64,000 bases of DNA from Eledone cirrhosa (GCA_964016885.1 OZ024743.1:85064001-85128000); one strand, 5' to 3'; positions 13,017-63,775 are shown, counted from the first letter of the stretch. The notes: generated by a model not told the origin, from the letters alone. A program made the numbers and translations.

Positions 13017-13098
13017 TGTCAGTGGTTGGATTCGAACCCACACCTCCTAAGAGACTGGTGCCTTAAACCAGCGCCTCAGACCGCTCGGCCACATAGCA
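13017..13098 (-). tRNA. tRNA-Leu(AAG), 5' acceptor strand disrupted (probable pseudogene)
   Basis: TGTGGCCGAGCGGTCTGAGGCG CTGGT TT AAG GC ACCAG TCTCTTAGGAGG TGTGGGTTCGAATCCAACCACTGACA; A and B boxes intact; the first 5 nt do not pair with the 3' end. Confidence 0.85.
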
Positions 13099-13340
13099 TT
13101 GGCATCCAGATATAGCATTGTGAACAGAAAATCAAGAATGGTACAGTACAGAACATAGGAGAGACACAAAGCTAGACACTGAGGAGGTCACACTATGTGT
13201 GACGAAAAAGCTTTGACAATCAGCAACTAAACAACCATCTGTTAAACAAATCTACAAGAGGTTTATAATAAACTGAAGTGAAAACTAACAAGTGCGTGTG
13301 TTTTTATCGGCAGCATGACCGCACAAGTAAAACAATATAT
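13094..13340 (+). mobile_element. Diverged PLE pseudo-LTR fragment with degenerate hammerhead
   Basis: CACTGAGGAGGTCACACTATGTGTGACGAAA ... GTGCGTGTGTTTTTATCGGCAGCATGACC matches the pLTR of the 23.9-28.7 kb element; ends in (TA)n. Confidence 0.8.
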
Positions 13341-13399
13341 ATATAGATATATATATAGAACTTTAATATATATATAACTTTAATATATATGTATAAGAA

Positions 13400-15720
13400 C
13401 TGTGAAATATTTAGTAGGAACGGTGCAACTTACTTACTAACCCTGGACGTGTTTAAATGCTTCATTTTCATGCAAGGGTTAACCGCAAAGAAAGATGTGG
13501 AAATTCGTACCAGAATTCTGACAAAATTAGAGCAGAATCAGAACTTAACATTACAGGAAATATCTGAGAAATGTCAGAGAATCATAAATCTGAGACACGA
13601 TACGAAAAGAATTGAAGAGAGAGACTGCTCTCATACAGTCTATGCGACCTAAAGTAAAAAAAAACAAAAAAATTAGTCCATGTTTTCGATGTGGAGGATT
13701 ACACTTTAGATACGATTGTCCTTTTAAAAACTTAAAGTGCTTCGAGTGTGGGAGAATAGGACATCAAAAATTACACTGCAAAACAAAACCAAGAAAAGGT
13801 TCAACACGAAAAATTATGTAAACAGGAAAAATGCGCGAGACTAAAAAAAAATTTGTGTATGTAAAAACTAACACCGTGAATGTTAAATTGCAGTCAGATA
13901 CAGGTAGAGACATTACTATAATCATTGAAGACTCGTGGAAAGCAACCGGGAAACCTACATTAGATAAAACATCGAAGATTGCACGTGGCGTCTCTGGGAA
14001 GAAATTATTTTTTTAAAGGCGAAATAGTAAGTAATGTTACATTTCGTGGCAAAACCGGAAAAGCTAAAGCTTATGTATTAAAAAGTACAACAAATATTTT
14101 CGGTACTGACTGGATGGAGCTGTTCCACTTATAGGATTTACCCATAAATATTTGTTTGTAAAAATGCAATAGGGTCACCCGCCAGTTCAAAGAAAGAGTC
14201 AGAAAAAAAAACGAAAAAAAAAACGAATTACAACCAAATCGAAAAAGAGACATTAGCATTAATTTTTGTGTGAAAAAATGTTACAAGTTTATTCAAGGAA
14301 GGAGTTTTTGTTTACACACTGACCACCTTTGTTGTCAATTTACAGATCAAAAAAGGGAATTCCCAGTCATACAGCAAATAGATTACAACGTTGGGACACC
14401 ATTTTATTAAATTATGATTTTAAGATGGAGTATCTACCATCCAAAAAATTAGGACACGCTGATGGTCTATCAAGATTGATATCTAAAAATAGTGAACCGT
14501 TTGAAGTCAAAGTGATCACGACATTAAGAGCTGAAACGGAAATAAAAAGTATATTGTGTAACGTAGTACGGGAATTACCTGTTGTTACCATAGAGGAATT
14601 AAAAGCGGAAGAAGACGTTTTTATTAAGAAAATGAAAAGATTAGTGAGAGTAGAAAAAAAAAAAATATGTGATGTGCAGAACGCAACCCAGATTCGAACT
14701 CGTACTCAATTTGTGACAATGTACTGATGTATGCACAAAGAGTAGTATTACCTGTTACACTACAAAAGCGAATATCAAAAGAATGTCACATTGGTCATCC
14801 GGGAGCATCGAGAATGAAAGCTCTTATGAGAAGTTATGTATACTGGCCCAAAATGGACCAAGAGATTGAAAAGTTGGTAAAATCATTCAGAGGTTGTGCT
14901 CTGGCAGCAAAATCGTTTACCACGAAATTTCAACCTTGGCCCAAGACCATTTCAACCATGGTCCAGACTACATATAGATTTCGTATGTCCACTAAACGGA
15001 TCACATTATCTTGGAGTGGTAGATAGCTTTACTAAGTGGCCTAAAATTTGTAAGTGTAAAAAACCAACCTCCTCGGTTACAGTAAGTTTATTACACGAAT
15101 TGTTTGTAAGATATGGTATTCCAGATACCATAGTTTCTGATAATGGGACACAATTCACTGCGTATGAATTTTAAAAAAAATTGTAAAATGTTCTCTATTG
15201 AACATGTTTCCACTCCACCGTATCATCCAAGGTCAAATGGACAAGCGGAACGTTTTGTGGATACATTCAAGAGGGCCTTAAAGAAAGCAAACAATGAAAT
15301 AGTAGATAATTTAACACTTCAACAAATCTTACAAGTATACCATGTAACGCCTAATACTAATACCCCTGCAGCCATGGCACCTGTGGAAATGATGTTCGCA
15401 AGGAAGATTAAGTCAGTGTTTGACAAATTGTTACCGAGACGAAAAAGAAAATATCTGATAACAAAAATGACATTTTTCAAAACTGGCGACAAAGTGTTTT
15501 TTAGAATGTATAAAAATGGTAAAGAAATGTGGGAAGACGCCATGATAAGTAAACAAATTGGAAAAATGTTGTATATGGTAAAAGGTCACAATTAGGAACA
15601 TAAATCAGTTTTTAAAAAAAGGTTTGCTGAAGAAAGGGCCACGAGAAATGAAGAACCAATGGAAGTGTTATATGATATTTTCGATGTGCCAACCTCCAAA
15701 GAAATCGTTGAACCTACTAC
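13400..15720 (+). pseudogene. Ty3/Gypsy gag-pol remnant (K02A2.6-like), RT deleted
   Basis: Two CCHC knuckles (CFRCGGLHFRYDC, CFECGRIGHQKLHC), degenerate protease (QSDTGRDIT), RNase H end (ANRLQRW, HADGLSR), integrase HHCC and core (HIGHPG, RLHIDF, VSDNGTQF, HPRSNGQAERFV); many frameshifts. Confidence 0.9.
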
Positions 15721-15794
15721 ACGGATGAGTACAAGCGAAGGGAAACGTACAGAATTATTAGGAAGTGGAACCAAAACGTCAAAAATATTCAACT

Positions 15795-61144: not shown

Positions 61145-62466
61145 TGCATGAAGACCATCCTCAATAACCATAGAACAGCTGAGGAGAAATGGGCCATTGA
61201 GAAAATCAAACTCAACCCCAAAGTGTTCTTTTCATTTTCGAAAAAACACAAGGTCACTGTCTCCACTGTTGGCCCTCAAATTGATGAAAATGGCACTCTC
61301 CAAGATAATGCCAAAATCATGGGTGAGATACTGCAGAAACAATACTGCTTTGTTTTCAGCAATCCTGATATGGCCCATTTGGGCTGTATCAGTGATGTTA
61401 ATCCCCAACACACTATATCGGACATAACGTTTGGCGCTCCTAATATCTTAGAGGCAATAAATGAAATTAAACACAATTTAGCAGTAGGCCCCGATAGGTT
61501 CTCTGCTTGTGTCATCATCTACATTAATGACATTACTGACATCATCAAGCACAGCAACATAAGAATCTTTGCAGATGATTCCAAGCTCCAGAAGGTCATC
61601 AATGAAGTGGGTGACCGGATGTGCCTTCAGTCAGACCTACTGGCTGTTATCCAATGGGCAGAAACGAACAATATGCAACTGAACGAGGATAAATCTGACT
61701 TAATTCACTTTGGAAAAGAGGATGCCCTGAAACTCCCATACTCCCTTCAGGTGAAACTCTCGTGGCATCCAACATTAGAGACTTGGAAGTAATTGTGTGC
61801 AACAACATAAGCTGGGCCACTCATATAAACAGCAAAGTTGACATGGCCCACAGAATGTGTCCCTGGATTCTCAGAACTTTCCAGTTGAGAAATATCTACA
61901 CTATTATACTTCTCTTCTCCACCCCACCTTGAATACTGTTGTCCACTGTGGTCTCATGAAAGTTGAAGCACCCCAAAGGTCAATTACAAAAAAGATAGAT
62001 GGCATGACAGGCCTTGACTATTGGAGACGATTAGAAAAGCTCAACCTTTATCCTCTCCAACGTCGCCGTGAGCGCTACATCATCTGCATGATGTGGAAAA
62101 TATTCCATCAGCATTGCCCAAATGATGTTAGCATCACTTTTAAGGTACACCCAAGGCTTGGGCCCTGTGCACAACAAAAATCACACTCGCATCTCATAAC
62201 AACAATACGGAACAATTATTTCACCTCGATTGGCCCCACTCTCTTTAATATTACACCAAAACACATTAAAACAGAAACAGACCCCATAATGTTGAAGATG
62301 TCTTTGGACAAATTCCACCAAGAAATCCCGGATATGTCTCCGTAAACAATAACTCTCTACTTGAGTTAGCCATGGTGTCCAAATCCTGATTTGAATGACT
62401 TCGCCAGGTAGTGCTATAAAGTTAGACATGGCCTGGGCCAATACGGGCTAAAGCCAATCAAAGTTA
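61145..62466 (+). mobile_element. CR1-group LINE 3' part, same family as 39-42 kb, RT core deleted
   Basis: IEKIKLNPKVFFSF...GPDRFSACV joined directly to IIYINDI...FADDSKL; 3' end homologous to 39056-39130. Confidence 0.9.
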
Positions 62467-62478
62467 TATATATATATA

Positions 62479-62805
62479 TATTGTTATACTTTGGGAGAGT
62501 CATGTTGCCAATAAGAAACACACGCACCAGTTGCTTTCACTTTAATTTATTATAAATTAAATTATAAATTTAGGAATTTATAAATTTCCGGTTGGTTGGT
62601 TGGTTCAATATGAACAATCGTCTGGTTGTGGAACCAACCAACCAACCGGAAATTTATAAATTCCTAAATTTATAATAAATTGAAGTGAAAGCAACTGGTG
62701 CGTGTGTTTCTTATTGGCAACATGACCGTCCCAAAGTATAACAATATCGGTTTCAACACACGTTTTCAGATAAAGAATCTTGCTAAACAAATTCAGAAAC
62801 GAAAT
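62479..62805. mobile_element. Short inverted pair of PLE pLTR 3' halves (family A), no ribozyme core
   Basis: 62479-62606 (-) and ~62610-62805 (+) match the pLTR downstream of the predicted cleavage site. Confidence 0.88.
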
Positions 62806-62888
62806 ATATATATATATATATATATATATATATATATATATATATATATATACATATATATGTGTGTATATATATATATATTTATATA

Positions 62889-63775
62889 AAATATAAAGAT
62901 TTACATGTACACAAACTAGACAAAGTCATAGATATATATGTTTTTGGCAACCATTCACGATGTGGCTCAATGATGAATTAATAAATTAAATAATCAGAGC
63001 AATATACTATAAATTATGTCCATAGAATCATTTGATAAGATATATACACTATTTCCTCTCCCAATCAGCATAATCAACCACACAAAAAACCAAGCTATAA
63101 GATTAAAAGGCACCTATGAAGACATAATAGATAAATAAACGACAGCCATATGGTTGCCAAAAACATATCTATGACTGTATAGTTTATGTATATGTAAATC
63201 TTTATATTGATAATCTCCCATAAGGTTGAGATGCAATTTAGGCAATATTAGGCTGCGCTTTCTAGGAACCAGCCCACTCGCCGTAAGGCACCAATCACAT
63301 TCTTTCTGACTTGACCACTGCCGCGTCACAGTTCTTAGCCATTTTGAATTCGTTTCTGGCGGGGATCATTTAAGAAAAATCTTCGTCCAAGTGAGTTTGT
63401 TTCCTGATGATTTCAAAGCTCGGAAATTTATCCTTGATCAGATATTTCCAAAAGCGAATGAAACCCTAAAGAGTAGAAACGTAATCCTGGTATGTTTATA
63501 TGCATTTTTTCTTCTAACTTTAATTTTATACCTAATTGTGTATGGTTGACGATATATTTAATCGATTTCCATGTGCTATCGAAATGGTGGGTAAATATTC
63601 TATAGCTGTTGATCGCGAATAGATGGCTGTCGTTTATTTATCTATTATTTCTTCATAGGTGCCTTTTAATCTTATAGCCTGGTTTAATTGGTTTGTTGTG
63701 TGGTTGATTATGCTGATTGGGAGAGGAAATAGTGTATATATCTTATCAAATGATTCTATGGACATAATTTATAGT
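62889..63775 (+). mobile_element. Diverged family D hammerhead unit with inverted, permuted fragment
   Basis: 63150-63775 is homologous to the reverse complement of ~20274-20875; 62889-63149 is inverted and reads across the unit junction; HHR at 63399-63480. Confidence 0.8.
63399..63480 (+). ncRNA. Type I hammerhead ribozyme (family D variant)
   Basis: GUUUC CUGAUGA UUUC-[GGAAAU/AUUUCC distal helix]-GAAU GAAA CCCUAAAGAG UA|GAAAC. Confidence 0.78.

Follow-up and report, generated by a model that had tools for sequence, protein, structure and literature searches.

How do several families of hammerhead ribozymes come to lie side by side in a single (TA)n-rich locus? The question is raised by a 64,000-nt stretch of DNA, C4:85064001-85128000, from the genome of a cephalopod-like host (3.0 Gb in 1796 contigs). 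A first-pass annotation of this stretch, the whole of which is called the window below, had described about 14 hammerhead motifs of five sequence families (A to E) and had proposed a locus where ribozyme RNAs are co-located with their likely mobilising Penelope-like elements (PLEs). Our analysis indicates that the window very probably contains nested insertions beside (TA)n of PLEs from two clades, one full-length and several 5'-truncated (families A, B and C), and of two non-coding hammerhead families (D and E). Hammerhead dimers are predicted to cleave multimeric transcripts, and D and E are likely copied by PLE reverse transcriptases (RTs) from the genome at large.

Hammerheads in the window

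The CUGANGA...GAAA core is present at all 14 annotated positions when a longer spacer is permitted. Cores of the form CUGANGA-N(4-30)-GAAA number 11 in the window, against 2.09 +/- 1.47 (maximum 6) in 100 shuffles. A fuller descriptor of the type-I motif set minimum lengths for helix I (4 bp) and helix II (3 bp), allowed helix II one unpaired base on the 5' side, and required the core, GAAA, a 4-16 nt A15.1...U16.1 box and a residue other than G at H17. It found nine strict matches and one relaxed match, the latter in family E, where a mismatch at 10.1/11.1 was tolerated. Dinucleotide-preserving shuffles gave a mean of 0.045 and a maximum of 1, nine of the 200 having a match. Complete type-I hammerheads by this measure are 10 of the 14 (four of A, two each of B and C, one each of D and E), and four are incomplete (Table 1). 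H17 is A in all 10 complete motifs, the triplets being CUA, AUA or GUA, and cleavage after NUA is predicted for every one of them, as the first-pass annotation had it.

When the 14 sequences, decayed ones included, are anchored on the core, helix I is paired at position 1.1 in 13 of them, at 1.2 in all, and at 1.3-1.5 in 10-11, with four to five different standard pair types at these positions. Compensatory change is seen between D and a relative 76% identical to it, where GUCUC/GAGAU in helix I becomes GUUUC/GAAAC, and a family E variant (locus L105) covaries in both helix I and helix II. The family E hammerhead is nearly invariant among units that have an overall identity of only 78-83%. As judged from their sequence, the complete motifs of the window are genuine type-I hammerheads, for which self-cleavage is predicted.

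For PLE hammerheads whose palindromic helix III is very short, the literature favours action as dimers that process multimeric transcripts (PMC4209133; PMC6765202). Four families, B to E, have a perfectly palindromic box in helix III (AUAUAUAU, AUGCGCAU, ACCAUGGU and ACUAGU); in family A (AGAACU and AGGACU) one position of the three fails to pair, which bears out the palindromic or near-palindromic stem III of the annotation. Its further suggestion, that the palindromes might restrict dimerisation to like partners, agrees with the duplex energies of some families. The self-duplexes of the C, D and E boxes have energies of -10.5, -11.2 and -4.8 kcal/mol, respectively, while the strongest cross-family duplex reaches -1.8 kcal/mol, the decayed older-A box with C excepted. 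However, a strict family 'barcode' via the helix III box is unlikely, because the A box does not pair with itself and the AUAUAUAU box is common to at least three different cores. In RNAcofold predictions with whole hammerheads, C and D dimers form double hammerheads joined by an intermolecular helix III of 8 bp; with A, B and E only an extension of helix II between strands was returned, which is uninformative.

Family A, a Penelope-like element

The open frame of family A, a PLE, has 1239 codons and encodes RT followed by a C-terminal GIY-YIG endonuclease (EN). In the full-length copy the frame stands between pseudo-LTRs, direct repeats 98.4% identical over 426 bp with one hammerhead in each. 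The protein has the motifs YVDD and VVY...YIGET...R..EH, a linker C-IDKK-C-IT-C (C-x4-C-x2-C) ahead of GIY-YIG, and Cys/His residues within GIY-YIG. In Neptune/Nematis-type PLEs, EN contains a CCHH motif and is preceded by a zinc-finger-like linker, CX2-5CxxC (PMC8557442); family A was compared with these traits by motif. The protein has 118 homologues, the best being an Octopus vulgaris RT-domain protein at 69% identity, and a few of them carry RVT_1 (PF00078), GIY-YIG (PF01541), PF26215 or PF28514. Against PDB, the family A profile matched reverse transcriptases at 5.9e-6. By tblastn with the A protein, family A is the only family with a detectable PLE frame in the window.

The other A copies are fragments of several ages. 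Next to the full-length element, a 5'-truncated arm stands head-to-head with it: 27922-28158 matches 28655-28408 in inverted orientation at 94.4%, and residues 1-39 of the A protein were found in the arm by tblastn. Two copies belong to an older subfamily. One is a decayed solo pseudo-LTR, 78% identical to 19167-19346; the other retains the RT end and EN, matched by residues 806-1239 at 43-81% identity in several frames, with a DNA identity of 76-80% to 25622-23384 and helix I of 3 bp. Two further copies are palindromes. The pseudo-LTR arms at 54417-55248 have an inverted self-match of 90.3% between outer TA tracts (54436-54561 and 55151-55246). In the pair of 5'-UTR pieces, 62478-62747 matches itself inverted at 84.5% and also matches 28450-28736, and tblastn finds A residues 1-39 and 1-20. 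Comparisons between the arms of family A palindromes revealed no A>G excess (5-27 substitutions per comparison, the differences being mostly indels).

As a separate observation, an Asn/Thr/His-rich low-complexity stretch lies within the A frame at 26720-27260 (-), about residues 260-440, upstream of the conserved part.

Families B and C, a second clade

Families B and C read as head-to-head, 5'-truncated PLEs with Hydra-clade marks, a placement made by motifs. The marks of this clade are DKT in place of DKG, a CxCX5C linker, CxxC and CxH around the EN core, and absence of CCHH (PMC8557442). A full-length C frame (L153) carries SDKT, CNCRIKNKC (CxCX5C), CNLC (CxxC) and CLH (CxH), and by eye it has no CCHH. 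The clade's length below 3 kb is exceeded, hammerheads being 3910-3927 nt apart in C and 3.8-4.0 kb apart (direct pairs) in B.

The window copies of both families lack the RT part. In family B, inverted repeats of 399 bp with 98% identity (28921..29319 and 31383-30985) bracket 1.7 kb, which is the further upstream part of one arm. The stretch 29321-31385 aligns at 96.8% with L048:5030-7246, one 3-kb arm of a 6-kb perfect palindrome elsewhere in the genome, where frames show RT-like motifs, CNCRDRSKC (CxCX5C) and then a GIY-YIG-like stretch. The family B tail reads into body sequence TACTCC.... At least 1792 candidate copies of B are present in the genome, of which the top 40 are 96-100% identical. 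In family C, 33059-33395 matches 36049-35726 inverted. The frame of the long arm contains CNCRIKNKC, its 3' UTR has internal repeats, and a tail of 125 nt leads into (TATACA/TA)n. Elsewhere in the genome intact C frames of 821 codons lie between identical hammerheads; the top genome copies are identical, and the long arm of the window is identical to copies with the intact frame.

A relation between the two clades is seen at the level of profiles. BLASTP of A against B or C was not significant. By hhalign, the profile of A and that of C, the latter built from 20 relatives of the C frame, align over 562 columns with a probability of 96.8% and an E value of 2.2e-10, from the DKT/DKS region and the RT motifs through GIY-YIG. 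Homologues of C, as of A, carry PF26215/PF28514, and the best named relatives on the C side are in Argonauta hians.

Families D and E, non-coding repeats

Families D and E can be regarded as non-coding, retrozyme-like repeats with one predicted type-I hammerhead per unit. No ATG frame exceeds 74 aa in a dimer of D or 99 aa in one of E. The D copy at 20.6 kb was mapped as 969 nt running from unit position 637 to 293; only the last 18 nt of a second hammerhead remain, at 21226-21243. The core-less D fragment, which holds ACCATGGT at 32294, belongs to a region (31907-32450) that is 97.1% identical to 20831-21382, 11 kb away. It is a local duplicate and not a second insertion; the copied part includes the flanking TA/TACA repeat. 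The diverged copy near 63 kb has an inverted partial arm (62922-63145), and its tail runs to unit position ~293 and then into (TA)n. Genome copies of D are 96-100% identical and comprise mostly 1.0-1.6 units; tandem pairs 643-658 nt apart number five among 86 exact cores.

The E copy is accompanied by an inverted partial arm (22481-22649), with a match of 92% between 22145-22313 and 22649-22481. In the genome, arrays of E repeat every 472-474 nt and comprise from two to at least eight units, many of them being short; dispersed copies of 1.3-1.5 units also occur. The unit has a TA-rich stretch of its own.

Short non-coding repeats that are abundant and carry a type-I hammerhead with a weak helix III, which implies dimers, are familiar from other hosts, namely the SINE-like Sm-alpha/Sj-alpha repeats of schistosomes and satellite 2 of the newt; their sequences are presumably other than those of D and E.

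One further feature of the window E copy is a 42-nt deletion right after the predicted cleavage site (21985; unit positions 7-48), at a short repeated CGT, by which helix I grows from 6 to 8-9 bp.

A shared insertion anatomy

The five families share one insertion anatomy, in the window as well as genome-wide: (TA)n at the 3' end, variable 5' truncation, head-to-head inverted partners, and a cleavage site inside the copy. Since the hammerhead sits close to the 3' end of the unit, a partial tandem copy carries one in each of its pseudo-LTRs. The annotation had assigned (TA)n flanks and inverted fragments to every family. The flanks are indeed found in all five; as for inverted fragments, A, B, C, E and the D copy at 63 kb each have an adjoining partial copy in the window, whereas the D copy at 20.6 kb has none.

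Of 30 family D copies in the genome, counting the one in the window, 22 have the 3' terminus at unit position 293 and four at 397, each a UA-rich tract; a TA-rich flank lies downstream of 23, and 5' ends vary. The copy is longer than one unit, with the cleavage site internal, in 21 of the 30, and has an inverted partial arm upstream in 16. Copies running straight into (TA)n are 18/30 in B and 27/30 in C, the remainder reading on into the element body, and in family A (TA)6+ is found within 335 nt downstream in all 12 copies. Among the first 100 copies listed for each of B and C, (-/+) pairs within 5 kb number 35 and 37, respectively, and (+/-) pairs are absent from both. Genome copies of E show minus...minus/plus arm patterns and TA flanks. 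Junctions of the PLE type are found genome-wide in D and E too, so that the lack of them in these two families, named by the annotation as a possible refutation, is not observed.

All five families are dispersed across all large contigs, with 8795 (A), 3158 (B), 9361 (C), 86 (D) and 10739 (E) exact 30-mer cores in the genome.

Is the locus special?

The control was a sample of 20 arbitrary 10-kb stretches (L155-L174) from the four largest contigs, C1-C4, 200 kb in all. With the same descriptor it yielded 20 complete hammerheads with at least nine cores, or 6.4 per 64 kb compared to 10 in the window. They are clumped: eight of the 20 stretches have any, and one stretch has four different families. 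Their boxes include ACCACUGGU, ACGCGU and AUAUAUAU. The share of (TA)6+ is 4.2% in the control and 3.6% in the window. Extrapolation gives a genome total of ~300,000 hammerheads, consistent with the rough 415,510 candidates of a first look.

The locus is thus ordinary for this genome, where co-location of families is the rule. Co-location is best explained by a shared preference for (TA)n together with nesting, and it looks like a by-product because the target is shared and the genome is saturated with copies. Clusters of hammerhead families in this genome should accordingly not be taken as functional loci. A 16-fold excess of the five exact cores in the window was rejected as evidence, since the families had been chosen from the window itself; it is the unbiased descriptor that gives 10 versus 6.4.

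Mechanism and alternatives

The steps by which such copies might arise can be outlined as follows. An endonuclease would nick (TA)n. The RNA template would retain its cleavage site, being uncut or religated, in the form of a multimer or a circle. Reverse transcription would often be primed at internal UA-rich tracts, and the second, inverted arm would come from the same event. Co-location would then follow from a common target in a copy-saturated genome rather than from a local functional unit. Circles of retrozymes have been proposed as templates of PLE RTs (PMC7229834; bioRxiv 10.64898/2026.07.22.740005), and the preferred target of Hydra and Naiad PLEs has been stated as (TA)n (PMC8557442). 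Taken a step further, a single Penelope-type mechanism may copy all the families, coding and non-coding, the nicked (TA)n annealing to a UA-rich tract inside an uncut hammerhead RNA, multimeric or circular. This extension is tentative, and we would put it at appreciably less than even chance. If true, it would explain the fixed 3' ends, the copies of more than one unit with an internal cleavage site, and the second inverted arm. Microsatellite 'targeting' would amount to microhomology priming, and (TA)n (~4% of the genome) and the hammerheads, some 300,000 by extrapolation, would feed each other.

Several results weigh against the overall interpretation of nested PLE and hammerhead-repeat insertions. 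No Rfam hammerhead family reached its gathering score in the window, and none was matched at E <=10 on 17 cut-outs of ~200 nt. The whole-window scan at E <=10 was dominated by TA-hairpin 'miRNA' matches, as judged from the best 150 of 404; elsewhere in the genome RF00163 has 18 matches over the cut-off among 74 scored. The Rfam result is outweighed because of the variety of helix I pairs, the compensatory changes and the published PLE build of family A. No Pfam model passes its cut-off on the A, B and C frames; on A, GIY-YIG stands at E 0.07-0.09 and RVT_1 gives no match. The C-family profile matched nothing relevant in PDB. The D and E units, compared to A, B and C including the full-length C locus, gave only TA-repeat matches. 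The A box shows no self-pairing (+1.4 and -1.7 kcal/mol), and essentially all family E copies have the U.U mismatch at 10.1/11.1. Finally, the 5' side is TA-rich in only seven of the 14 one-armed D copies, so that the insertion itself could generate some of the (TA)n.

The last point bears on a reading in which (TA)n is not a pre-existing target at all but a tail that reverse transcription adds to the 3' end of every arm, as by slippage on a UA-rich template. The positions of the D 3' ends at internal UA-rich tracts agree with it, as do the B and C copies in which (TA)n begins exactly at the 3' end, the fact that both outer ends are 3' ends in two-armed copies, and the (TA)6+ share of 4.2% in the genome sample. 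We nevertheless consider it unlikely, since published work names (TA)n as the site favoured by Hydra and Naiad PLEs (PMC8557442), TA lies to either side of half of the one-armed D copies, and the nested insertions of the window lie inside long TA/TACA tracts. It is less probable still that the hammerheads are passengers of little or no catalytic role, persisting in young copies for want of decay time. The copies are very young (B and D 96-100% identical, top C identical), so that conservation within a family says little, and the motifs are missed by Rfam models. Moreover, published minimal hammerheads of PLEs cleave poorly in vitro, dimers included (PMC4209133), and Naiad PLEs thrive without canonical hammerheads (PMC8557442). 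What argues against this reading is that the motif is kept with compensatory changes between families with no other sequence in common and between D and its 76% relative, and that of E is almost invariant although its units are 78-83% identical. The decayed copies at 13.2 and 19.2 kb show how the motif decays neutrally.

The local functional unit of the first-pass annotation, in which the PLE copies of the window mobilise the co-located ribozyme RNAs (B to E) and helix III palindromes limit dimers to like partners, appears very improbable. B and C are truncated PLEs themselves and not dependent RNAs; D and E have no similarity to A, B or C, and for this reason no local mobilising PLE can be named for them; and with 86 to 10739 exact cores per family over all large contigs the enzyme may come from anywhere. 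The control density, the control stretch with four families, the sharing of AUAUAUAU and the A box tell against it as well. These outweigh the open A frame only 2-10 kb from B, C, D and E copies, the (TA)n flanks and inverted arms across the families, and the C, D and E self-duplexes that are far stronger than cross-family ones. Of the autonomous/non-autonomous system in that annotation, the coexistence of PLEs and non-coding hammerhead repeats with the same anatomy stands. Least credible of all, and in effect ruled out, is that a DNA transposon or foldback element with a chance hammerhead-like motif has the inverted repeats of B and C as its termini. The 98% repeats of 399 bp around 1.7 kb and the many inverted pairs in the genome do have that look. 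Yet the spacing of arms varies from 80 bp to 5 kb, as expected if one arm is a longer 5'-truncated copy; L048 is a perfect palindrome of two 3-kb arms with RT/EN-like frames; among the first 100 listed copies every inverted pair is (-/+) and none is (+/-), some pairs are direct with a spacing of 3.8-4.0 kb, and the related family C has an intact 821-codon RT-EN frame.

Relation to known systems

Each component of the first-pass interpretation has already been published: dimeric minimal hammerheads of PLEs, (TA)n targeting, inverted and truncated copies, and retrozymes as dependants of PLEs (PMC4209133, PMC8557442, PMC7229834, bioRxiv 10.64898/2026.07.22.740005). What is new is the cephalopod-like host, very young and abundant families of Hydra type, and two retrozyme-like families; the junctions that point to copying of non-coding hammerhead repeats in the PLE manner appear to be new as well. 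In the literature on cephalopods together with hammerheads, Penelope or retrozymes no study of this system was found among the papers listed, although supplements of the cited papers may list cephalopod families.

Family A closely follows the PLE minimal hammerheads of Cervera and de la Pena (2014, PMC4209133): a 6-bp helix II in which one base on the 5' side is unpaired, helix I of 4-5 bp, helix III of 1-2 bp with a short loop, a motif in each repeat flanking the RT-EN frame, opposite-strand pairs 100-700 bp apart, and many single motifs from truncated copies. The host is a different one, and B, C and D have a very long helix II of 31-48 nt with a perfect 8-nt palindromic box in helix III. 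The EN+ PLEs of the Hydra clade (Craig et al. 2021, PMC8557442) are matched by C, and by B as far as its truncated frame goes, in DKT, CxCX5C, CxxC and CxH. B and C also have hammerheads of canonical type, (TA)n insertion, 5' truncation, partial tandems and inverted 5'-truncated partners. Unlike the 'generally short (<3 kb)' elements described there, C has a spacing of 3.9 kb (821 codons plus a 3' UTR of 1.2 kb), and its copy number is very high, with 9361 exact cores and many identical copies.

D and E resemble metazoan non-LTR retrozymes (Cervera and de la Pena 2020, PMC7229834; Li, Clavereau and Pollet 2026, 10.64898/2026.07.22.740005) in being non-coding with one type-I hammerhead per unit, in the tandem arrays of E, and in coexisting with autonomous PLEs, the proposed mobilisers. 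Their units of 656 and 474 nt exceed the retrozyme RNAs of 170-400 nt (PMC7229834) but fall within the range of 51-972 bp (10.64898/2026.07.22.740005). D differs in that it mostly has 1.0-1.6 units and not long arrays, and the PLE-type junctions of D and E (fixed 3' ends, inverted arms, (TA)n) are not met in the available parts of these two papers.

One genome thus combines at least two PLE clades and two non-coding hammerhead families with the same insertion anatomy, which is an inventory and not a new kind of system. The contribution lies in genomic evidence for mobilisation of retrozyme-like repeats by PLE machinery; in published papers this link is proposed from co-occurrence and pseudo-LTR similarity. 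That evidence consists of the D 3' ends fixed at two internal UA-rich tracts, the 21 of 30 D copies exceeding one unit, and the strictly (-/+) inverted arms; the junctions give a concrete picture of the priming step.

Features of the window

Table 1. Elements and predicted hammerheads in the window; positions count from its first nucleotide.
Feature	Position	Strand	Remarks
Full-length family A PLE	23943..28407	(-)	pseudo-LTRs, ORF, two hammerheads
3' pseudo-LTR of full-length A	23943-24364	(-)	
ORF of full-length A	28040..24321	(-)	
5' pseudo-LTR of full-length A	27982-28407	(-)	
Inverted 5'-truncated A arm	28408..28760	(+)	head-to-head with full-length copy; adjoins 5' pseudo-LTR
Decayed solo pseudo-LTR, older A subfamily	13168..13345	(+)	core relic 13179-13207; helix I 2 bp
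5'-truncated, frameshifted older A PLE (RT end and EN)	17442..19346	(+)	break 18090-18362; core relic 19178-19206
Head-to-head A pseudo-LTR arms, palindrome	54417..55248	both	hammerheads 54724-54768(-), 54884-54928(+)
Palindromic pair of A 5'-UTR pieces	62465..62900	both	no hammerhead core; (TA)n flanks
Family B short arm	28921..29319	(-)	hammerhead 28967-29032; outer end adjoins (TA)n
Family B long arm	29321..31466	(+)	5'-truncated body, broken EN part, 3' UTR; hammerhead 31271-31336; tail into (TA)n
Family C long arm	33185..35726	(-)	last 394 ORF codons (35766..34582), 1.2-kb 3' UTR, hammerhead 33310-33380
Family C short inverted arm	35726..35850	(+)	hammerhead 35741-35811; TA tract from 35851
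Family D element	20270..21243	(-)	1.5 units of 656 nt between TA/TACA tracts; hammerhead 20555-20633
Family D fragment without catalytic core	31907..32319	(-)	5' end as in 21.2-kb copy; to unit position ~397
Diverged family D copy	62922..63862	(+)	76% to D; 5'-truncated unit, near-complete hammerhead 63398-63481
Family E copy	21763..22390	(-)	~1.3 units of 474 nt; hammerhead 21980-22028
Family A complete hammerheads	24076-24120, 28120-28162, 54724-54768	(-)	descriptor
Family A complete hammerhead	54884-54928	(+)	descriptor
Family B complete hammerheads	28967-29032; 31271-31336	(-); (+)	descriptor
Family C complete hammerheads	33310-33380; 35741-35811	(-); (+)	descriptor
Family D complete hammerhead	20555-20633	(-)	descriptor
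Family E complete hammerhead	21980-22028	(-)	relaxed descriptor; U.U mismatch at 10.1/11.1
Family A incomplete hammerhead	28408	(+)	begins exactly at C3; lacks 5' strand of helix I
Family A decayed hammerheads	13179, 19178	(+)	helix I 2-3 bp
Family D relative, incomplete hammerhead	63404	(+)	base 10.1 lost; box non-palindromic

The window also contains repeats of other kinds. A C-rich repeat of ~400 bp occurs at least five times, always beside (TA)n and without a hammerhead core (31510-31907, 38593-38991, 58444-58738 and 59952-60339, with shorter pieces at 51.4 and 53.9 kb) and may likewise be an element that targets (TA)n. Two LINE-like families are present. One is represented by a GC-rich (50-56%) element at 6913-11900 (+), in which endonuclease/exonuclease/phosphatase and RVT_1 domains are spread over several shifted frames. 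The other, at 37054-42605 (-), 56996-58483 (+) and 60989-62435 (+), has an AP-endonuclease, RVT_1 and a PHD finger after the RT, and fragments of it are repeated in the window.

Tandem repeats occupy further parts of the window. A satellite with a 44-bp period fills positions 1-3769 with ~85 units of 95-97% identity and extends past the left edge. G-rich tandem repeat blocks at 45940-49260 and 16520-17380 reach a GC skew of 0.74, with a self-similarity of 72-80% at many offsets. A tRNA-like sequence at 12752-12833 (-) scores 29.7 bits against an Rfam gathering score of 29 and has several non-standard pairs; it may be the head of a SINE or a pseudogene.

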